DNA of 64,000 nucleotides from a virus (taxonomy: Duplodnaviria > Caudoviricetes). The position numbers and the translations under genes are program-made. The stretch spans positions 1 to 64,000 of the IMG/VR virus record IMGVR_UViG_3300032030_000040, one strand, 5' to 3'. Positions 3,328-58,216 of this stretch are shown in pieces. Position 1 is the stretch's first letter. The number at the start of each line of letters is the position of its first letter. Under the pieces are notes generated by a model, which was not told where the DNA came from, did not search any database, and saw only the letters and a list, made by a program, of their open reading frames with translations.

Positions 3328-3427
3328 TTGTATATTTGATAAATTTTAGGCTAAAAATTTGTATATTTGATAAACTTTTCGTACCTTTGTCGTAGCAAAT
3401 AAGATAAACGTTTCAAAACAAGACATT
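3328..3427 (+). promoter_or_regulatory. Bacteroidetes-type promoter with ATATTTGATAAA operator-like box (two copies) and conserved leader
   Basis: TTTG 3358-3361, 20-nt spacer, TACCTTTG 3382-3389; GCAAATAAGATAA 3395-3407, then TTCAAAAC, then ATG 3428. Confidence 0.85.
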
Positions 3428-3718
3428 ATGAAGAAACTGATTTTGTTGGTAGCAGCCGTTATGATTGTCGGCTGTCACAGTCGGGAAAAGGGCGTCAGGA
3501 AAGAGGTCGAGAGCCGCAAGAAGATGGAAATGGTGATTAACGGTCATCAGTACTGGTTTCCTGTCGTGGGTTCTGTCTCAGGCCAGAGTCAAGGAACCGT
3601 TCAGCAGCTGGTGGAAGACCCAGACTGCCGACGCTGTGCCGAGATTCGGGACAGTATGCTTGGAGTCATCCGTGAGATTGTCCGTGAAGAAATCCGAAAC
3701 TCCAAAGAGTCTGAGTGA
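3428..3718 (+). CDS. small lipoprotein
   Basis: MKK-hydrophobic-IVGC lipobox. Confidence 0.65.
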   Translation: MKKLILLVAAVMIVGCHSREKGVRKEVESRKKMEMVINGHQYWFPVVGSVSGQSQGTVQQLVEDPDCRRCAEIRDSMLGVIREIVREEIRNSKESE

Positions 3719-7471: not shown

Positions 7472-8103
7472 GTATTCGCAAGAAGAGACGCAAGAAGGTC
7501 TGCCCCTGCTGTGGCCGTAAGCTATGGCTGAGAGACTTCTACAAGGACAGGTCTGGCAATATATCCACCTACTGCAAGGAGTGTGTGAAGGCCAAGAAAC
7601 GTGCTGAGTACGCTGCTGGCAGGAAGAAACCAGACGGTATCAGGATGGACTTTGCCACTGGCCGTGTCTATGAGAAGAACGGACTGAGCAAGCGGATATT
7701 CTGGAATAAGCAGATGTGCGATGACCTCAGACGACTCTATCCTACAACCAAGAACGACGAGCTTGCAGGATTGTTCGGTGTCAGTGTCCGCACCATGATA
7801 CGAAAGGCACGGGAGCTGGGCGTGGAGAAAGACAAGGACTGGATGCACGGCACCGTCATGAGCCACTTGAAGATGGCAAAGATGGAGTCGGACAGGCTTG
7901 GAAGGCCAGGCGGTTTCCCAAAGGGTGTTCACAGCAATCCCGACGGAGAGTTCAAGAAGGGACGTGTGGAAACGCCAGAGCAGAAGGAAAGGCGTGTTGC
8001 AGGTATGCTGGAGTATAACAGGAAGCATCCCGACAAGCTCAGGGAACGTGCAAAAAAGGCATGGGTGACAAGAAGAGAAAACCAAAATTTGAATATAGTA
8101 TGA
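7468..8103 (+). CDS. Zn-ribbon + HTH basic DNA-binding protein
   Basis: CPCC...YCKEC; NDELAGLFGVSVRTMIRKARELG HTH; FPKG/FKKG repeats. Confidence 0.65.
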   Translation: MSIRKKRRKKVCPCCGRKLWLRDFYKDRSGNISTYCKECVKAKKRAEYAAGRKKPDGIRMDFATGRVYEKNGLSKRIFWNKQMCDDLRRLYPTTKNDELAGLFGVSVRTMIRKARELGVEKDKDWMHGTVMSHLKMAKMESDRLGRPGGFPKGVHSNPDGEFKKGRVETPEQKERRVAGMLEYNRKHPDKLRERAKKAWVTRRENQNLNIV

Positions 8104-8209
8104 AACCAAACAACAAACCAATGGCCACCGTGAGTGACCGAAACAATGATTACCAGAACGACTGCTTTGTAGTTGACTGGGCGTGTACAAACAATAAAAT
8201 TGAAAAGTT

Positions 8210-8395
8210 ATGATTATCAAAGGAATTGCAGTTGCTATCCTGTGCATCATTATCGTGGGCCAGTGGATAGTCGGAGTGAGAGGCAACAGAAAAGAAGGCC
8301 TCGGGTGTATGATGAACGTCCTGATGACACTCTGGACGTTGATGCTGTTTGCTCTTCTGTATTTTGCAGGGTGCTTTGATTTCTCAGGTCAGTAA
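8210..8395 (+). CDS. small membrane protein (2 TM)
   Basis: Two hydrophobic segments in 61 aa. Confidence 0.5.
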   Translation: MIIKGIAVAILCIIIVGQWIVGVRGNRKEGLGCMMNVLMTLWTLMLFALLYFAGCFDFSGQ

Positions 8396-8411
8396 CAAAA
8401 CTTTCGGGACA

Positions 8412-8822
8412 ATGGAAAAACAAGAAGAGAAGCTAATCGAGGGGATTCTGGGTAAGGAGTTCCTTGCTGCAGCCAAGGAGTATGGCGCAAAGATGAAGTT
8501 GGCCGTAGGCGCTCAGGGTGCGAGTCCGAAGATTCAGGAGGCTATGGAGCGCCTGGCATCAGTGGCATTTGCCAAAGGTGGAGAACATCTGAAGAGCGTC
8601 ATGTGGACTGAGCTGGCAAAGAGATATCCCAAGCTCAATACATGGGTATTATGCAAGGGAGAGTCTGGCCGTATGTTCATGGCAAAGGTAGTGAAGGCTG
8701 GTGCTGGCAGTCTGAGGTTCCAAGACTACGACGGGGGAAAGACAGAGAAGGTGACTCACTGGATGGTCGTTCCTGAAATCGAAGAACAAGTGAAAGAAGC
8801 AAAAGAGGTGGCCATGAATTGA
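8412..8822 (+). CDS. DUF551-like phage protein
   Basis: W....RYP....VL...VTHWMVVPE motif; ATG 8412 preferred. Confidence 0.6.
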   Translation: MEKQEEKLIEGILGKEFLAAAKEYGAKMKLAVGAQGASPKIQEAMERLASVAFAKGGEHLKSVMWTELAKRYPKLNTWVLCKGESGRMFMAKVVKAGAGSLRFQDYDGGKTEKVTHWMVVPEIEEQVKEAKEVAMN

Positions 8823-8835
8823 GCCACCCCTTTTT
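8801..8835. terminator. bidirectional intrinsic terminator (better on the - strand)
   Basis: AAAAGAGGTGGC-10nt-GCCACCCCTTTTT. One stem position is G-U on the - strand but A-C on the + strand. Confidence 0.75.
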
Positions 8836-8957
8836 ACAAACAGAAGGTCCTACTCTCCCGAGCAAGACCGTTCCTATGCAAATAAGATAAATACCATTCA
8901 AAACTAAAACAATGATACCCGTGAAGGGCAAGATTGGTTAGATTAAATGTATCTATC
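8801..8957 (-). ncRNA. predicted ~155-nt antisense sRNA complementary to the shared operon leader
   Basis: Own promoter (8965-8995, -), hairpins with G-U pairs and a GGGA loop on the - strand, unstructured segment complementary to GCAAATAAGATAA...TTCAAAAC...ATG, and a terminator. Confidence 0.6.
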
Positions 8958-8964
8958 CGTAATG

Positions 8965-8995
8965 CAAAGGTACAATTTTTTATCGAATTTGCAAA
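8965..8995 (-). promoter_or_regulatory. leftward Bacteroidetes-type promoter
   Basis: On - strand: TTTG-CAAATTCGATAAAAAATTG(19 nt)-TACCTTTG. Confidence 0.75.
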
Positions 8996-9007
8996 ATTTT
9001 GAGTGAA

Positions 9008-9029
9008 ATTTGATAAAAAGTTATCAAAT
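9008..9029. promoter_or_regulatory. palindromic operator ATTTGATAA-N4-TTATCAAAT between divergent promoters
   Basis: Perfect 9-bp inverted repeat whose half-site is the box embedded in the seven repeated promoters. Confidence 0.7.
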
Positions 9030-9030
9030 A

Positions 9031-9062
9031 TTTGGCAATTTCCGTAGAAATGATTATTTTTG
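9031..9062 (+). promoter_or_regulatory. promoter of the tandem-HTH gene
   Basis: TTTG 9031-9034, 20-nt spacer, TATTTTTG 9055-9062. Confidence 0.7.
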
Positions 9063-9082
9063 CAAGGTAATAATTTGGAACT

Positions 9083-9487
9083 ATGATAAGAGAACGTATT
9101 TATCAGCAGATGTTGAAGCGTGGAGTGAACCAGACAACGCTCTGCAATGACCTCTGTCTGCAGGTGTCTAATTTCAATGCCTTCATCCGTGGCAACAGGT
9201 CTATGCCATTCAAGGACCTTGTGGCCGTGATGAAGTATCTTCGCCTGTCGGTAGCACCGAAAGGGACGGAGTTCACCAGTACGCCTCCGGAGAACATCAA
9301 CGAGATTTTCAGGAACCGCATCAAGCAGGGTGGCTTGAAGCTGGTGGAGGTGGAAGCTGCCTCCGGCATCAACAGAACAAGTATCTCCAGTATCATTACT
9401 GGAAAGCACGTCACGTCATCGAGGAACCTTGGGAAGCTCATGCAGGCTCTTGGTCTCGAAATCGTGCCGTTCAAGGCAACAGTTTAA
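9083..9487 (+). CDS. transcriptional regulator with two tandem XRE/Cro-like HTH domains (candidate repressor)
   Basis: GVNQTTLCNDL.LQVSNFNAFIRG and GLKLVEVEAASGINRTSISSIITG...LGKLMQALGL. Confidence 0.8.
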   Translation: MIRERIYQQMLKRGVNQTTLCNDLCLQVSNFNAFIRGNRSMPFKDLVAVMKYLRLSVAPKGTEFTSTPPENINEIFRNRIKQGGLKLVEVEAASGINRTSISSIITGKHVTSSRNLGKLMQALGLEIVPFKATV

Positions 9488-9504
9488 TTCAAAACAATAT
9501 CAGG

Positions 9505-10179
9505 ATGGAAATAGTAAGAAAGAAACTTGACGAGCTTATTCCAGCTGACTACAATCCAAGAAAGGATCTGCAGGAAGCCGATAAGGAATACCAGGACATC
9601 AAGAGTGGTATTCTGGAATACGGTCTTGTCATTCCGCTTATCATGAACAAGCGGACGGGCAACCTTGTGAATGGCCATCAGAGGCTAAAGGTGCTGAAAG
9701 ACCTCGGCTGGACTGAGGTAGAGGTCAGTATCGTGGATATGGACGAGAAGAAGGAGAAAGCCCTGAATCTCGCACTCAGTCGTATTGACGGTGACTTTGA
9801 CAACAAGGCACTGACAACTGTCATGGCAGAAGTCCGTGCTGCTGGCATCGACCCGATGACTCTTGGCTTCACGAAGTCAGAGGTTGAGAAGATGTTCCCA
9901 GCGCAGATGCAGGCTGAGAACCTGTTCGGTGACGACAAGGACAATCCCTTCAAGGACTTTGACAACAAGCCAGAGGAAACGGAGGTTGTCGCCATGGTCG
10001 GGAAGTACCGCTTCAGCATGGATAAGAGCAAGATGGAGGAAGTCATGGGTGATATCCGCTACCGCAATGGCTTTGTGAAGGAGAGTGTGGAGAAAGAAAT
10101 CAAGCTGAGATTATTCTATGGGAAAGAATGGGAAAAGCACCTCGCAGACGATGACGTTTCGGACGCTGAAGGTAAGTGA
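9505..10179 (+). CDS. ParB/Srx N-terminal domain protein
   Basis: PADYNPRK, LVNGHQRLKVL, EKALNLAL. Confidence 0.85.
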   Translation: MEIVRKKLDELIPADYNPRKDLQEADKEYQDIKSGILEYGLVIPLIMNKRTGNLVNGHQRLKVLKDLGWTEVEVSIVDMDEKKEKALNLALSRIDGDFDNKALTTVMAEVRAAGIDPMTLGFTKSEVEKMFPAQMQAENLFGDDKDNPFKDFDNKPEETEVVAMVGKYRFSMDKSKMEEVMGDIRYRNGFVKESVEKEIKLRLFYGKEWEKHLADDDVSDAEGK

Positions 10180-10768
10180 GATAGAAGAGGCCTTCTACAA
10201 TCCCCGTAAGGTGATGAAGAAAGGCAGTAAGAAATACGACAACCTCAAGAGCTCTCTGGAGGATTTCGGCTATGTCGAGCCTCTGGTGGTCAACGAGGTC
10301 AACAACCGCCTTATCTCTGGTCACCAGCGTTTGAACGTCTTGCGTGACATGGGGCAGGAAGAGGTGGAGGTGTCTATCGTCCATATTGAGGAAGAGGCAA
10401 GGGAGAAGGCCCTGAATATCCTGTTGAACAAAGTCAAGGGAAAGTGGGATAAGACCAAACTGGCCGATGTTCTCAAGTCCATTGGTGACGAGTACAATGC
10501 CCTTGACCTCGGATTCGAGGAAGGAGATATCGCAGAGTTCCTGAAGAACGATGACGATCTGGGCGTTGACGGAGCCAAGGCTGACGAAATGGATTCCGGC
10601 ATCAAGCTAAGGAAGGATGCAGCAGCCGTGGTTGTCGCCATTGCTGGTGTCCGTTTCAATATCCCAGCCCCAGAGTTTGCGGAGCTGGAGAAGGGGCTGA
10701 TAGAGCAGGGCTTCTTCAGTGAGAAGGAAATGAGTGAAGAACTTAAAAATAGATTTATTGCCGAATGA
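10118..10768 (+). CDS. ParB/Srx N-terminal domain protein (paralog; start may be ATG 10151)
   Basis: AFYNPRK, FGYVEPLVVN, ISGHQRL, EKALNILLNK. Confidence 0.85.
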   Translation: MGKNGKSTSQTMTFRTLKVSEIEEAFYNPRKVMKKGSKKYDNLKSSLEDFGYVEPLVVNEVNNRLISGHQRLNVLRDMGQEEVEVSIVHIEEEAREKALNILLNKVKGKWDKTKLADVLKSIGDEYNALDLGFEEGDIAEFLKNDDDLGVDGAKADEMDSGIKLRKDAAAVVVAIAGVRFNIPAPEFAELEKGLIEQGFFSEKEMSEELKNRFIAE

Positions 10769-12297
10769 TACAGATGGTAGCGCTGGATAAAATCCATGCA
10801 TCGACTTACAACCCACGAAAGTCAGACCCCAAGCGTCTTGACCTATTGGAGCTTTCCTTGCGGAAGCTCGGTTTCGTTTCTCCTATCGTCGTGGACCAGG
10901 GAGGCGAGATAATCTCTGGCCACCAGCGTAGCTTCGTGGCTTCAAGGATGGGTGTGAAGAGGGTACCTATCACCATTATCCCACGAATGACCCTTGATGA
11001 GCGTAAGAGTCTCAACATCGTGTTCAACCGTGCCACCAATGACCTGAAGCGCAGCGACACTTGCCAGACGGTAAAGGAGTATATCAGCAAGTATGACGTT
11101 GAAGCAATCGCCTCGGAGTTGCCAGACCTCACTCCAGATACTCCAGAGTTCTATCCGTGTATGTACACAAAGACTGGTGACAGTTTCGAGCTGTTGAAGA
11201 AGAACGCCGGAAAGGTAAACCAGTACGCTACGAATATGTACGGGAGCCTGGCACGAAAGAAGATTGAGCTGCCTACTGTCGTGGATGAGGAAGACAATGT
11301 GGTGAATGGAATCGGACGTGTCTGCTACTATGCCCAGCACAATGTCCGTCCTATTCCCATCTGCAGAATAACCAAAGCTCAGGCACAGTTCGCCAACCTC
11401 ATGCTGAACTACCTGACCATGGACTTCGATATCCAGAACCGTTATGCCGACACCCTCCGTCACAATTCCTTCATGAGAACGAGGAACACCCGTGCAGGAG
11501 GTCTTGGCTGTGGCTTCTACAAGGGACTGTGGCCACGCCTGAAATGTGTTGATACAATGATACTGGAAGGCCAGAAGAAGGATGAGTGGGTAGGACGTTT
11601 CGGTGACAGCATCGTTGACTTCGGTGCTGGAAAGCTCAACAACACCCGAATACTCAGGGAGAGCGGAATCCAGTGCTCTGCCTTTGAGCCGTACTTCATA
11701 GCCACTGGAGAGGAAATCAGCAAGACGGAGAGCTTGAAGATAGACCGCAAGTTCCTCGAAGAGATAGCGGACGGGCGCAAGTTCACCGCCATCTTCATTT
11801 CCTCTGTGTTCAACTCAGTACCCTTCATGGCTGACCGCATGGCCATTGCGACCATCTGTTCCGCACTGTCAAGCCCTGATACGATATGCGTATGCTGGAC
11901 TCAGGGTGTGAATGTCGGTAACAATGCCGCCATTTCAAGTAACGTGCAGAGCAAGACCGCCGCAGGTCAGATAACCTTCAATATTGACTACGAGCCGAAT
12001 GTGGTTCTGGGTGACTTCTCCAAGCTGCCGAAGGTGCAGAAGTACCATACCAACCGTGAGATATTCGATATCTTCAATCCTGTGTACGGCGATATCTACC
12101 GCCTTGACACCATTGACGGATATGTGTATATGGAGGCACGGGGCACCAGACTTGACGTGAACAATGCCGAGTACATGGAAAGGTTGCGCAAGGCCATAGA
12201 ATTTGAGTTTGACCTTCCCTATCCTGACGGAACCCGTGCAGGACTGGTTGACGAGGCCAAGGCTGCTTTCAGCAAACGTTTAGGAGTGCAGATTTGA
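10765..12297 (+). CDS. ParB-domain protein fused to a class I SAM-dependent transferase fold
   Basis: YNPRK...ISGHQR, a second degenerate ParB unit (VVNGIGR), and C-terminal IVDFGAGK, AFEPY, IFISSVFNSVPF. Confidence 0.75.
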   Translation: MIQMVALDKIHASTYNPRKSDPKRLDLLELSLRKLGFVSPIVVDQGGEIISGHQRSFVASRMGVKRVPITIIPRMTLDERKSLNIVFNRATNDLKRSDTCQTVKEYISKYDVEAIASELPDLTPDTPEFYPCMYTKTGDSFELLKKNAGKVNQYATNMYGSLARKKIELPTVVDEEDNVVNGIGRVCYYAQHNVRPIPICRITKAQAQFANLMLNYLTMDFDIQNRYADTLRHNSFMRTRNTRAGGLGCGFYKGLWPRLKCVDTMILEGQKKDEWVGRFGDSIVDFGAGKLNNTRILRESGIQCSAFEPYFIATGEEISKTESLKIDRKFLEEIADGRKFTAIFISSVFNSVPFMADRMAIATICSALSSPDTICVCWTQGVNVGNNAAISSNVQSKTAAGQITFNIDYEPNVVLGDFSKLPKVQKYHTNREIFDIFNPVYGDIYRLDTIDGYVYMEARGTRLDVNNAEYMERLRKAIEFEFDLPYPDGTRAGLVDEAKAAFSKRLGVQI

Positions 12298-12349
12298 TAA
12301 ATTATTCTCTCTGAAAATTTGTATATTTGATAAATTTTTTGTACCTTTG
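12292..12349 (+). promoter_or_regulatory. repeated promoter with ATATTTGATAAA box but without the conserved leader
   Basis: TTTG 12318-12321, 20-nt spacer, TACCTTTG 12342-12349; extra TTTGATAA at 12293-12300. Confidence 0.8.
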
Positions 12350-29566: not shown

Positions 29567-29642
29567 TTTGCTTATTTGATAAACTTTTTGTATCTTTGTA
29601 ATAGCAAATAAGATAAGTAACAATATTCAAAACTTTGGCAAT
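29567..29642 (+). promoter_or_regulatory. repeated promoter + conserved leader
   Basis: TTTG 29567-29570, TATTTGATAAA, TATCTTTG 29591-29598, GCAAATAAGATAA 29604-29616, TTCAAAACTT. Confidence 0.85.
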
Positions 29643-29918
29643 ATGACAATCGAAGAGACAAAATCAGCTGCTTATAACAGCATCAAGAACCAGTTGGACG
29701 CTGCCATTGCAAACGGAAGCATCCTGAGTATCAAGGGACTCAAGAAGGCTATTGCGGATATCAAGAAGCGTATCAAGGCCGTTGAGTTCGGAAGTGCTTT
29801 CGCCTCCAGTATGGAAGAACTGCATAAGGCAGAGCTGGCCATTGCCAACCTGTCAGGGCAGAAGCAGGCATACCAGGAGAAACTTGACTGGATAAACGAG
29901 AGAATCAAGAACGCATAA
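29643..29918 (+). CDS. hypothetical coiled-coil protein
   Basis: First gene after the promoter/leader. Confidence 0.7.
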
Positions 29919-31145: not shown

Positions 31146-31218
31146 TTTGCATATTTGATAAAATTTGCGTACCTTTGCCGTAGCAAATAAGATAAGTAAC
31201 ATCAAAACTAATAACATT
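31146..31218 (+). promoter_or_regulatory. repeated promoter + conserved leader
   Basis: TTTG 31146-31149, ATATTTGATAAA, TACCTTTG 31170-31177, GCAAATAAGATAA 31183-31195. Confidence 0.85.
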
Positions 31219-31506
31219 ATGGCAAGTAAGGTCTACGAGAACACCGCCAGGCGTATTGTCGCATACAGCGACGACGGGGCTTTCAAGCTAATCGCCACAC
31301 GCAGGGCAAACAAGACTGAGCGTTTCGGACGTGTCGCCTTCGTCGGCTCGTTCTGGACGTTAGAGACATTCCAACGGAATGGTGCTTCCTTTCAGCCCTG
31401 TGTCTTTCAGGGACTACCCTCTCGATTCGATTTGAAGCAGGACGTCATCGACCAGCTCAGGAACTCCGTTAGATTTACTCAGGCCTACAAAGAACTATCC
31501 GTATGA
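31219..31506 (+). CDS. hypothetical protein (start re-assigned to ATG 31219)
   Basis: The track start at 31165 lies inside the promoter; ATG 31219 follows the conserved leader. Confidence 0.65.
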   Translation: MASKVYENTARRIVAYSDDGAFKLIATRRANKTERFGRVAFVGSFWTLETFQRNGASFQPCVFQGLPSRFDLKQDVIDQLRNSVRFTQAYKELSV

Positions 31507-36030: not shown

Positions 36031-36107
36031 TTTGCATATTTGATAAATTCTTTGTACCTTTGAAGTAGCAAATAAGATAAGTTATTCACATTCAAAACTT
36101 CAAGATT
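36031..36107 (+). promoter_or_regulatory. repeated promoter + conserved leader
   Basis: TTTG 36031-36034, ATATTTGATAAA, TACCTTTG 36055-36062, GCAAATAAGATAA 36068-36080, TTCAAAACTT. Confidence 0.85.
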
Positions 36108-36446
36108 ATGGCAAGTACAGTTAAAAACATCGAGAGTGCAAACAAGAGTTTGGTAATGAAGGCAGCTTGGGCTATCCTCAAGAAAGCCGAGGTAAGAACG
36201 TTGAGCGAGGCCATGAAGCAGGCTTGGAAGGCCGTCAAGTTGAAGGTTGCTATGGCCAAGGGCGTAGTGAAGTTCCAGTACCGCAAGGCCAGTGGCGAGA
36301 TTCGTACAGCTATCGGTACCCTGAAATCAGGTGTGGTCAACTATGAGCCGAAGGGTACAACCCGTAAGCCGTGCTACTCTACCGTCGCCTATTGGGACAT
36401 CGAGAAGAAGGGCTTCCGTTCGTTCTGCATCAGCCACTTAATCTAA
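36108..36446 (+). CDS. DUF2693/WYL_2-like SH3 beta-barrel protein
   Basis: VKFQYRKASGEIRTAIGTL...AYWDIEKKGFRSF. Confidence 0.75.
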   Translation: MASTVKNIESANKSLVMKAAWAILKKAEVRTLSEAMKQAWKAVKLKVAMAKGVVKFQYRKASGEIRTAIGTLKSGVVNYEPKGTTRKPCYSTVAYWDIEKKGFRSFCISHLI

Positions 36447-41492: not shown

Positions 41493-41568
41493 CTTGCATA
41501 TTTGATAAACTTTTTGTACCTTTGTAATAGCAAATAAGATAAATACAAACTTTCAAAACTTAGGAATC
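41493..41568 (+). promoter_or_regulatory. repeated promoter + conserved leader
   Basis: CTTG 41493-41496, ATATTTGATAAA, TACCTTTG 41517-41524, GCAAATAAGATAA 41530-41542, TTCAAAACTT. Confidence 0.85.
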
Positions 41569-41898
41569 ATGCAGAAAATTAGTTTGAAGAAAGAGACAAT
41601 CAAGGCCATCGCAGACCGAATCAACGGTACTGAAGCCTCTGGCCAGTTGACAACTGTCACTGATGCGGAGTTCGAGCAGGACGGTTTCCTTATCATGGTA
41701 GATTACGAGGTCTATGGTGAGTGGCGTGACCAACAGATGAGACACAGCGAGGTTCCCTATAACAACATCGAGGACCTGTCAGGCTGGGAGCGTGACGGTG
41801 CAGCCATCAGCTTCATCAATGCCTATGGGGATGACGGTGAAGACGTGGAGATTGCCCAGAGCGACCTTGATGCCCTGATGGAAGAGATAGCAGCTTAA
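41569..41898 (+). CDS. highly acidic small protein
   Basis: 109 aa, D/E-rich; first gene after the leader. Confidence 0.65.
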   Translation: MQKISLKKETIKAIADRINGTEASGQLTTVTDAEFEQDGFLIMVDYEVYGEWRDQQMRHSEVPYNNIEDLSGWERDGAAISFINAYGDDGEDVEIAQSDLDALMEEIAA

Positions 41899-42913: not shown

Positions 42914-42990
42914 CTTGCATATTTGATAAACTTTTTGTACCTTTGAAGTAGCAAATAAGATAAGTAACAACAATTCAAAACTTCAAAATT
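42914..42990 (+). promoter_or_regulatory. repeated promoter + conserved leader
   Basis: CTTG 42914-42917, ATATTTGATAAA, TACCTTTG 42938-42945, GCAAATAAGATAA 42951-42963, TTCAAAACTT. Confidence 0.85.
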
Positions 42991-43557
42991 ATGGCAAATA
43001 CTTGTTTTACGGACTACACGTTTGTAGGAGAGCCAGAGAAAGCGAAGAAGCTGCTGGCAGATTTGAAGAGAGTCATTAACACCAAGCGTAAGGATTTAGG
43101 TCCTGACACCTACCTGTCTGAAAGCGACTGGCTGGGATGGATAGTAAGGGACTTGCTTGGCAAGGATGAGAAGGCCGACAATATCCATTGTGGGGGGACG
43201 TTCTATCTGGAGGATGAGCTGACCAATAACGAGGTACGCTTTACGACGGCGACACGCTGGACGCCCTGCAGGGAAATGTTCAAGATGCTTGCAGAGAAGT
43301 ACGGCCTTGACCATTACTACTACGCAGAGGAAATCGGCTGTGAGCTGCTGGAAACCAATGACGACCAAGGAATGTACTATACCAACCGCTACATGGTCAC
43401 TGGCTCAGACATCGAGGACCAGTATTTCGATACCAAGGAAGATGTGCTGGCCATGCTCAAGGAAGAGCTCGGCAAGGATTTCGGTAGCTGGGAGGAAATG
43501 AGAGCCGATGAAGAGAATACCTACGAATACAATGTTTATGAGATAGACGTAGTGTAA
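42991..43557 (+). CDS. acidic YubB/DUF1281-like protein
   Basis: MANTC..., F.TATRWTP, YYAEEIGC pattern. Confidence 0.55.
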   Translation: MANTCFTDYTFVGEPEKAKKLLADLKRVINTKRKDLGPDTYLSESDWLGWIVRDLLGKDEKADNIHCGGTFYLEDELTNNEVRFTTATRWTPCREMFKMLAEKYGLDHYYYAEEIGCELLETNDDQGMYYTNRYMVTGSDIEDQYFDTKEDVLAMLKEELGKDFGSWEEMRADEENTYEYNVYEIDVV

Positions 43558-56848: not shown

Positions 56849-58216
56849 ATGGCAGAAGTCGAACTGGCATACAAGCGCAAGGCTCGCCTGAGAGGTAAGA
56901 ACCGCAAGGTGAGAATCGAGCAGGTTTACGACATGCAGAACCTCATAGCTGCTGACCATGAAGCCCGCAAGGGGAAGCGTGGCCATAAGGGTGTGCGTGA
57001 GTTCGACAAAGACAAGGATGGTAACTTCCTGCTTCTTCAGCAGATGATTAAGGAAGGAACCTACCACACGTCGCCAGGCCATGAGTGCGTCCGCCACTGT
57101 CCCTGTGGAAAGGACAGGCTGCTGCATAAGCTGCCGTACTTCCCAGACCACATAGACCATCATGCGCTCATGCAGGTTATCATGCCAGTGCTGCTGAAGT
57201 ATTACTACTATGACTCTGCAGCCAGTATCAAGGGGAAGGGTATGCACTTTGCAGCCCGTAGGACGGAACGATGGATAGACGAGAACAAGGACGCCGGAAG
57301 GCTGTACTATGCCAAGCTGGACTTCGTGAAGTTCTACCACCTCATTAACCAGCTGCTTATCTACGAGTTCCTTTGCAGTATCTTCGGCAACAAGGGAATC
57401 CGTTACCTTCTCTGGGAGGTGGTGACGGCCTGTGAGCAAGGGCTGGGAATCGGGCTCTATCCCATCCAGCCTATCGCCAATGCCTATACTTGTCCGCTTT
57501 GCCGCCTGCTGATGCGGAAGTTCCGTGTCAGGATAGAGATATACTGTGACGATATCCTTATCATGTCACGCTGGAAGAAAGAGGTCTGGAGAGCCGTGAA
57601 TTTCGTTCAGTGGTATGCGAGGGAGGTCATGCGCCAACCTCTTCATGACAATATCGGAGTCCAGATTATCGACACCACTCGCAGGGTGGACTTCGTGGGC
57701 TATCAGTATTTCTTCTGCCACACTCTTCTTCGCAAGAAGATGAAGTGCAAGTTCAAGCAGCGCATGAGCCAGCTGAAGGACGAAATGCTCCGCTATCAGG
57801 TGGCCACATCTTACAAGGGGTGGATGATGCACTGTGACGGCTACAACCTCTGGTGTGCAGTGATGAAGATGAAGTCATTCAAAGAACTGGGAGTTCCCAC
57901 CTTTGAGAAGAAGGATGCCGACGGCAAGCGGATGCTTGAAGGTACCCGTGTGTCGATGGAGTCTCTTGAAGGCCATGAGATAGCTTTCCTTGATGTCGAG
58001 TTTGATGTAAGGTCTAAGTATGACGGCAAGAAGAACGAACCGAAATTCTCCGCTGTCGTGCAGGTTGAGGAATACGGAAAGAAGAAAAAGTTCTTCACCA
58101 ACAATCCCAAGCTGCAGGACACGCTTAGATACGTGAAAGATAACGGAATGTTCCCCTTCAAGGGTACGCTGGTGCCCATCAACAAGACGGGACTGCCCGA
58201 CTACGAGATTCAGTAA
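56849..58216 (+). CDS. DGR reverse transcriptase with C-terminal extension
   Basis: KDRLLHKLPYFPDHIDHHA, SIKGKG, KLDFVKFY, GLGIGLYPIQ, YCDD, VDFVGY. Confidence 0.95.
   Translation: MAEVELAYKRKARLRGKNRKVRIEQVYDMQNLIAADHEARKGKRGHKGVREFDKDKDGNFLLLQQMIKEGTYHTSPGHECVRHCPCGKDRLLHKLPYFPDHIDHHALMQVIMPVLLKYYYYDSAASIKGKGMHFAARRTERWIDENKDAGRLYYAKLDFVKFYHLINQLLIYEFLCSIFGNKGIRYLLWEVVTACEQGLGIGLYPIQPIANAYTCPLCRLLMRKFRVRIEIYCDDILIMSRWKKEVWRAVNFVQWYAREVMRQPLHDNIGVQIIDTTRRVDFVGYQYFFCHTLLRKKMKCKFKQRMSQLKDEMLRYQVATSYKGWMMHCDGYNLWCAVMKMKSFKELGVPTFEKKDADGKRMLEGTRVSMESLEGHEIAFLDVEFDVRSKYDGKKNEPKFSAVVQVEEYGKKKKFFTNNPKLQDTLRYVKDNGMFPFKGTLVPINKTGLPDYEIQ

Follow-up and report, generated by a model that had tools for sequence, protein, structure and literature searches.

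In an uncultured phage of gut and rumen Bacteroidales, the 260 bases that separate the end of a rightward operon from a gene for a regulator with two helix-turn-helix (HTH) domains carry the signals of a leftward non-coding RNA. We judge it moderately probable that this putative minus-strand anti-leader RNA pairs with a leader shared by the phage operons and represses them. The window analysed is the first 64 kb of a complete virus record of 97,912 bp with direct terminal repeats, and window positions are used throughout, the same numbering being carried on into the rest of the genome. Nearly all of the genes of this genome are oriented rightward. The contigs on which relatives of clade A (see below) carry the small-RNA locus include some binned with Bacteroidaceae, Bacteroidales and Prevotella MAGs, and no tyrosine or serine integrase was found in the phage genome or on the phage-bearing MAG contigs. 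The elements of the locus and of its immediate surroundings are listed below, where the ‘box’ is the 13-nt word GCAAATAAGATAA.

Ending at 8822, + strand: upstream rightward operon.
8801–8834, both strands: second terminator hairpin, 13 bp, bidirectional, with the stop codon of the upstream gene (8820–8822) within its loop.
8836–8877, − strand: conserved terminator, with an extended stem AUAGGA/UUCUGU, a 10-bp stem (8869–8860/8855–8846), a GGGA (GNRA) loop (8859–8856) and then a U-rich tract.
8878–8884, − strand: exposed seed UAUUUGC (7–8 nt with the adjoining U), complementary to the first bases of the box.
8878–8914, − strand: anti-leader of 37 nt, the exact complement of a full leader copy that reads on the + strand as the box (8878–8890), a second box TTCAAAAC and an ATG (8912–8914).
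8885–8958, − strand: hairpin 1, whose 5′ arm pairs with the distal part of the anti-leader in single-sequence and consensus folds.
8930–8916, − strand: apical small hairpin of hairpin 1 (UGCCC/GGGUA).
8965–8995, − strand: small-RNA promoter, with a −33 element TTTG (8995–8992), a 19-nt spacer and a −7 element TACCTTTG (8972–8965).
9008–9029: perfect palindrome ATTTGATAA-aaag-TTATCAAAT with 9-bp arms, between the divergent promoters of the small RNA and of the HTH operon; its columns are invariant in relatives.
9031–9062, + strand: promoter of the HTH operon (TTTG, 20 nt, TATTTTTG), without the box.
9083–9487, + strand: regulator gene, 134 aa, two HTH domains (Pfam HTH_3, HTH_31, HTH_26).

The small-RNA promoter fits the consensus of the Bacteroides primary sigma factor σABfr (PMC7366714), with a predicted start near 8960. 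Its −7 box and the A-tract with TTTG are conserved in all of the clade A relatives described below, and the −7 box reads TA[CT]CTTTG in 15 of 15 locus variants. The approximately 120 nt that follow contain no conserved ORF: the only long minus-strand frame (8931–8677, with a TTG start) is broken in the aligned relatives by 1-nt indels, so that no credible ORF remains at the locus. The first-pass annotation had proposed a leftward consensus promoter at 8965–8995 and a terminator at 8801–8835 bounding a stretch without ORFs, and as sequence features these are confirmed, with one correction. The hairpin at 8801–8834 is real, but it is bidirectional, it is present in the relative L001 and missing in L002, L009 and L010, and the conserved terminator is the GNRA hairpin at 8836–8877. 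As the stop codon of the upstream operon sits in the loop of the 8801–8834 hairpin, this second terminator also serves that operon. The loop of the conserved terminator is GGGA, GUGA or GCGA in all variants, which makes it a GNRA loop on the minus strand only, and its stem pairs change on both sides among relatives. The predicted RNA is thus about 120 nt long (8960 to approximately 8838), or about 165 nt if read on to the second terminator. A promoter and an intrinsic terminator of its own around a short non-coding stretch are what is expected of a trans-encoded base-pairing sRNA, and from them we infer its transcription. In four metatranscriptome runs (assembled contigs, depth 2–11) the flanking genes are covered by contigs that end at 8859 and near 9089–9105 and leave 8860–9088 uncovered; such contigs carry no strand, end or level information, and short structured RNAs are often lost from them.

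The two strands of the locus differ greatly in their ability to fold. The minus strand reaches −65.7 kcal/mol (z −8.0), compared with −36.8 kcal/mol (z −3.0) for the plus strand, which shows A–C mismatches at the sites of the minus-strand G–U pairs; the earlier observation that the G–U pairs of the stems work only on the minus strand is thus borne out. The same asymmetry is seen in three relatives (minus/plus −45.8/−30.4, −39.8/−24.9 and −44.0/−32.5 kcal/mol). The small hairpin at 8930–8916, the 10-bp hairpin with a GGGA loop at 8869–8846 and the hairpin at 8834–8801, all described previously, are found again on this strand. The segment between the first two of them had been described as open. 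It is indeed the reverse complement of the leader, but its 37 nt are not open: in the minimum-energy and consensus folds most of the anti-leader forms the 3′ arm of the long imperfect hairpin 1, paired with the 5′ arm of the RNA itself, and only approximately 8884–8878 is unpaired. This 5′ arm is a degenerate copy of the leader without the first eight bases of the box, starting at about box position 9. Neither the single-sequence fold nor the consensus fold of either clade pairs the seed (8884–8878), which lies between hairpin 1 and the terminator stem; clade B has the same hairpin 1 architecture. The exposed seed looks like a toehold, and since most of the anti-leader is sequestered, pairing with a leader would need strand displacement. 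An exposed seed complementary to targets encoded elsewhere is a second property of trans-encoded sRNAs, and here the targets number 12–13.

These targets share a uniform arrangement. The box GCAAATAAGATAA is found perfectly 13 times in the 97.9-kb genome, on the + strand every time and with zero perfect copies on the other strand. Seven of these copies lie in the window, all on the + strand (3395, 8878, 29604, 31183, 36068, 41530 and 42951); when up to two mismatches are allowed, 11 matches are obtained against 1.1 expected, a count that none of 100 shuffles reaches. With the exception of 8878, all of the window copies (six) stand behind the shared promoter and ahead of an ATG, and the earlier statement that the box is perfect in these six leaders holds. 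Genome-wide, 11 copies sit five bases behind a near-identical promoter TTTGCATATTTGATAAAC...TACCTTTG, which therefore puts the box at about +2 of the transcript, and each of them is followed by the second conserved word TTCAAAAC and then by an ATG. With one mismatch, the copy at 83519 is a twelfth that is linked to a promoter. The two perfect boxes without a promoter are the 8878–8914 copy and 96497, which lies between the first and second genes of an operon, ahead of a real 214-aa gene; a promoterless leader copy before an internal gene fits an RNA-level module. The targets are dispersed over 93 kb, and the six in the window are the following (from box to ATG, with the net binding energies explained below).

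3395–3430, + strand: target leader 1, net −15.9 kcal/mol.
29604–29645, + strand: target leader 2, net −21.0 kcal/mol.
31183–31221, + strand: target leader 3, net −21.7 kcal/mol.
36068–36110, + strand: target leader 4, net −17.4 kcal/mol.
41530–41571, + strand: target leader 5, net −19.4 kcal/mol.
42951–42993, + strand: target leader 6, net −17.1 kcal/mol; its operon extends to the genes for the head protease (43751) and the portal (47744).

The description of these transcription units as early operons is not supported, since the operon behind 42951 includes the head protease and portal genes; the PHROGs assigned to the first genes behind the leaders are all of unknown function, and thus no timing class can be given to them. 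The leaders at 78085 and 96497 are interrupted by a stable hairpin (GGCCA-N7-TGGCC), inserted after the box and ahead of the TTCAAAAC word. At 12318–12349 and 88491–88522 there are two more promoters of the phage type, which have a TTTGATAA element and no box after them; the box is therefore not an obligatory part of the promoter.

Pairing between the RNA and the leaders was evaluated as net binding, that is, the energy of the cofolded dimer minus those of both monomers, a difference that includes the cost of opening hairpin 1. Net binding ranges from −15 to −22 kcal/mol for 11 of the 13 leaders, and is weaker for 64728 (−8.9 kcal/mol) and 96497 (−9.6 kcal/mol). Random 51-mers of the same genome (n = 150) give −3.0 ± 2.1 kcal/mol with a minimum of −12 kcal/mol. 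For the six leaders singled out by the first-pass annotation as partners of the RNA, the cofold values of −15.9 to −21.7 kcal/mol, against −3.0 for random sequences, agree with its proposal. RNAduplex energies were dropped as uninformative, random controls reaching about −30 kcal/mol by this measure. Most of the predicted duplexes span the leader from base 2 to the start codon or close to it. It should be noted that these energies are not independent evidence, because the locus holds a paralogue of the leader and complementarity to it is automatic.

Outside the window, at 88490–88592 (L022:10490–10592), two promoters stand face to face with starts about 16 nt apart, the leftward one driving a 161-aa gene. 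A 28-nt stretch of the rightward leader (genome position 88565) is identical to 8868–8895 at 24 of 28 positions and includes 16 nt perfectly complementary to the small RNA (AUUUGCAUAGGAACGG), with a predicted net binding of −19 to −20 kcal/mol. This leader could be one more target of the RNA, or else the paralogue that gave rise to the small-RNA locus; the stretch was not found in the 76%-complete relative G001.

We then turned to related phages, which were sought with the regulator protein and an 18-base word in viral, metagenome and genome collections. This gave 15 distinct variants of the locus, on viral, metagenome and MAG contigs, which fall into two phage clades: clade A, from sheep, deer and cattle gut or rumen material, and clade B, made up of 85–87-kb human-gut phages with one extra gene between the locus and the regulator gene. 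The regulator gene itself is kept at 70–86% identity in relatives. No variant lacks the −7 box, the long hairpin or the terminator hairpin with its GNRA loop, and each keeps the same seed unpaired. The clade A consensus fold is again stronger on the minus strand (−30.0 kcal/mol, 41 pairs) than on the plus strand (−14.1 kcal/mol, 26 pairs). In this clade 90.5% of the alignment cells are paired, compared with 39–45% once partners have been slid. Two-sided changes occur in six pairs, hairpin 1 shows compensatory changes, and none of 500 shuffles reaches the observed covariation score. For clade B, two-sided changes affect four pairs of the terminator, and seven G–U pairs never vary. The suggestion to look for covariation in related phages has therefore been followed up with a positive outcome, namely compensatory changes and invariant G–U pairs on the minus strand in both clades. 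A conserved structure with covariation on the transcribed strand is a third property of trans-encoded sRNAs, seen here in few and related sequences. Because the sample is small and related, the support from covariation for a selected minus-strand structure is good but not overwhelming. Finally, and more telling than the binding energies, the anti-leader follows the leaders of its own clade: beyond the box, its tail matches the leader consensus of that clade (TTCAAAAC in clade A, ATCACTTAAAA..CTAAACATT in clade B), with alignment scores for own versus other clade of 12.6 versus 5.7 in G005 (clade B) and 10.8–11.5 versus 8.0 in G000 (clade A).

Neither the locus nor the RNA has a DNA match among deposited phage genomes. 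Judged by its portal protein (56% identity), Bacteroides phage BS-TP3 is the nearest cultured phage, and the box is present in it at chance level only; no cultured model was thus found. The literature searched contains no description of this small RNA or of the combination of promoter and leader word. In one sheep-rumen Bacteroidaceae MAG (G006; L166–L171 and L174–L177), which also holds a phage contig with the small-RNA locus, there are about 21 copies of a long palindromic repeat with arms of ACGGATTT units and a loop that contains the 13-mer box beside TTGATAA. This repeat is nearly absent from 200 other genomes of Bacteroidaceae searched, and the extra perfect boxes in this MAG probably represent a chance 13-mer amplified by a lineage-specific palindromic repeat; they were set aside.

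The alternative that fares best takes the 13-bp box primarily as a DNA operator of a phage regulator, most plausibly of the adjacent two-HTH protein; the 8878 copy would be one more operator in a divergent control region, and the minus-strand RNA would be incidental or otherwise employed. We regard this as possible though rather doubtful. The box is identical at 10 of 13 positions to GCATATTTGATAA, an element overlapping the −33 region of every leader promoter, and the two are 34 bp apart in ten cases in G000 and eight in G001. In clade B a third copy is found 33 bp further upstream, giving pairs of boxes 66–67 bp apart that flank the promoter. Such pairs of perfect boxes are found in G005 (L012–L016), for example at reverse-complement positions 10508/10575, 16581/16647 and 41111/41178, with the −33 box-like element midway between them, so that three phased direct repeats are formed. 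A distance of 66–67 bp around a promoter is reminiscent of the spacing of lac O3/O1. The whole family of direct repeats, G[CT][AG]WAT[ATC][ATC]GATAA, comprises 28 forward copies and one reverse copy in G000 and 35 forward and no reverse copies in G005; the sole reverse copy of this relaxed word in G000 is in the small-RNA promoter. The copies are phased by 33–34 bp, and some of them are untranscribed and overlap the −33 region, an argument for a protein that binds DNA. Sites repeated at a fixed, helically phased distance around promoters, as seen here, are expected of an Xre/Cro-type operator set. Moreover, the box is invariant between clades whose HTH proteins are 71% identical. Such strict conservation of 13 nt would be more usual for a site recognized by a protein than for a 37-nt RNA duplex, and it counts against the RNA model. 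The half-site TTGATAA of the conserved perfect palindrome at 9008–9029, between the divergent promoters, is found again in every leader promoter, and this palindrome is likely to be an operator of the HTH protein. A protein with two tandem HTH domains would suit an asymmetric site, and the nearest solved structures are weakly alike (E 0.11). Directly 3′ of the HTH gene, at 9505–12297, are three successive genes with ParB-like N-terminal domains, the last of which is fused to a methyltransferase domain.

On the other hand, an operator needs 13 bp only, whereas the locus keeps a whole 37-nt leader with its ATG and with a tail that tracks the clade, which a pure 13-bp operator would not need. This reading also leaves unexplained the minus-strand −7 box, the GNRA terminator, the pairs that form as G–U on the minus strand only and the compensatory changes. 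The box at 96497, internal to an operon, has no promoter to regulate, and the small-RNA promoters of relatives have no −33 box-like element. The two readings are nevertheless compatible, and both layers may exist; a parallel reading of the same box word at the DNA level is probable. A stronger version, which we consider unlikely, is that the 13-base word is read twice, as DNA by the tandem-HTH protein at phased promoter sites and as RNA by a toehold-gated anti-leader at the 5′ ends of transcripts, forming a two-layer lock on almost the whole genome.

It is very improbable that the locus is an inert remnant, either an inverted duplication of promoter and leader or the leader of a lost gene, kept similar to the other leaders by gene conversion. 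It does look like an inverted leader duplication, because the 5′ arm of the RNA is a degenerate leader behind a leader-type promoter, and the 24/28 paralogue in the leader at 88565 is in keeping with such an origin. However, two clades and 15 variants have kept the locus near the same regulator gene, and the conservation of promoter, seed and terminator in both clades makes an inert remnant unlikely; the stems, too, still pair through two-sided changes. The possibility raised at the outset that 8878–8914 is what is left of the leader of a gene deleted here was followed in the relatives, none of which has a gene after the corresponding leader copy. A function of the plus strand, where the copy at 8878–8914 is a complete leader with an ATG and could, when read through, be a decoy for a leader-binding factor or lead to translation of a nine-codon frame, is scarcely credible, as this copy sits behind a + strand terminator, the short frames after it are wholly different in relatives (MIPVKGKIG, MMPE and MNLDR) and the plus strand folds poorly.

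How would an anti-leader RNA act? The host-type (σABfr) constitutive promoter at 8995–8965 would drive a stable leftward non-coding RNA, whose free seed (U)UAUUUGC would nucleate at the 5′ end of the mRNA, on the initial bases of the box GCAAAUAA. The perfect leader of the mRNA would then displace the weaker intramolecular arm, rich in G–U pairs and mismatches, by a toehold-style strand displacement, and the duplex would extend from the 5′ end towards the start codon, masking the A-rich unstructured leader. Bacteroidota do not have Shine–Dalgarno sites, and their ribosomes need unstructured A-rich leaders (PMC7366714). The duplex should consequently block ribosome loading, and may invite duplex-specific cleavage. 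As its promoter has no box, the neighbouring HTH operon would escape. Since one RNA gene faces about 12 target promoters, the RNA is probably a stoichiometric brake or threshold on nearly all of the operons, which seems likelier than complete silencing. The first-pass annotation had presented the locus as a trans-acting silencer of early operons: the structured RNA bounded by a promoter and a terminator and built around a leader complement stands, whereas the open anti-leader gives way to a sequestered one and the restriction to early operons is dropped. The sequences themselves show the anatomy of the locus, its conservation and covariation, the strand asymmetry and the complementarity; pairing in vivo, repression as the direction of the effect, and its timing are inferred.

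The closest known counterparts in mechanism are GibS and FopS of Bacteroides thetaiotaomicron, from the same host phylum and likewise from an Hfq-less and Shine–Dalgarno-less background, which repress translation by pairing at the 5′ translation initiation region of polycistronic mRNAs (PMC7366714, PMC11697453). Like the phage RNA, they have their own σABfr promoter and an intrinsic terminator. They are, however, encoded on the chromosome and not by a phage, they carry their seeds in a long unstructured 5′ end and not behind a toehold, and they address host metabolic operons through partial complementarity, whereas the phage RNA would address a uniform leader tag. It does not belong to the GibS family (Rfam RF04182; 26.4 bits against a gathering score of 115, E 0.56), and neither FopS (RF04319) nor phage antisense families such as C4 gave an Rfam match at E up to 10 in 8000–10000; Rfam matches on the locus are all below threshold and at chance level.

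Among phages, the C4 RNA of P1/P7 and the CI RNA of P4 are phage-encoded antisense RNAs that repress phage genes through short repeated target words, alongside a protein repressor. They are excised from the very transcript that they control and act on one operon of a temperate phage. Unlike them, the small RNA described here is served by a promoter of its own, would act on about 12 dispersed targets and has a toehold fold, in a phage without an integrase; it is not processed from a controlled transcript with targets in the same operon, as the immunity RNAs are. The resemblance to C4 and CI that had been pointed out is a functional analogy at most, given that no integrase was found, that the RNA has a promoter of its own and that its targets extend over 93 kb. 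P22 Sar and λ OOP are short antisense RNAs of phages, each transcribed from its own promoter to its own terminator, and they mask or destabilize a phage mRNA. They are cis-encoded opposite a single target, whereas the RNA studied here is predicted to act in trans on many leaders, and the + strand copy opposite to it is a promoterless, decoy-like paralogue of the leader. Lastly, the operator sets of phage repressors and lac O1/O3-type loops are built from DNA words that are repeated in phase and flank promoters, and a regulator gene stands beside a palindromic site. The phased words and the palindrome adjacent to the regulator are shared with the present case; a structured transcript and a full-length complement of the leader are not accounted for by such systems. 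On balance, we would class the feature as a putative phage trans-antisense RNA, with a uniform leader tag on a dozen operons and a toehold-like fold as its distinctive characters. A reverse transcriptase gene (phrog_1423) at 56849–58216, amid the tail genes, suggests that this phage also carries a diversity-generating retroelement.

Very little is known of how phages of gut and rumen Bacteroidales regulate their genes, and the literature searched describes no regulatory RNA encoded by such phages. The prediction is a sharp one that reporters could test at little cost, given that seed and box are both short and invariant. If it is true, a single RNA fitted to a leader tag shared by a dozen operons would control a 98-kb genome very compactly, and RNA-based control would be shown to work on Shine–Dalgarno-less leaders in phages. 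The 13-nt tag, the matching toehold RNA and probably a matching DNA-binding protein would also provide parts for the engineering of Bacteroides. Should the word be read at both levels, the two-layer lock could serve a carrier state or the timing of gene expression in a phage without an integrase.
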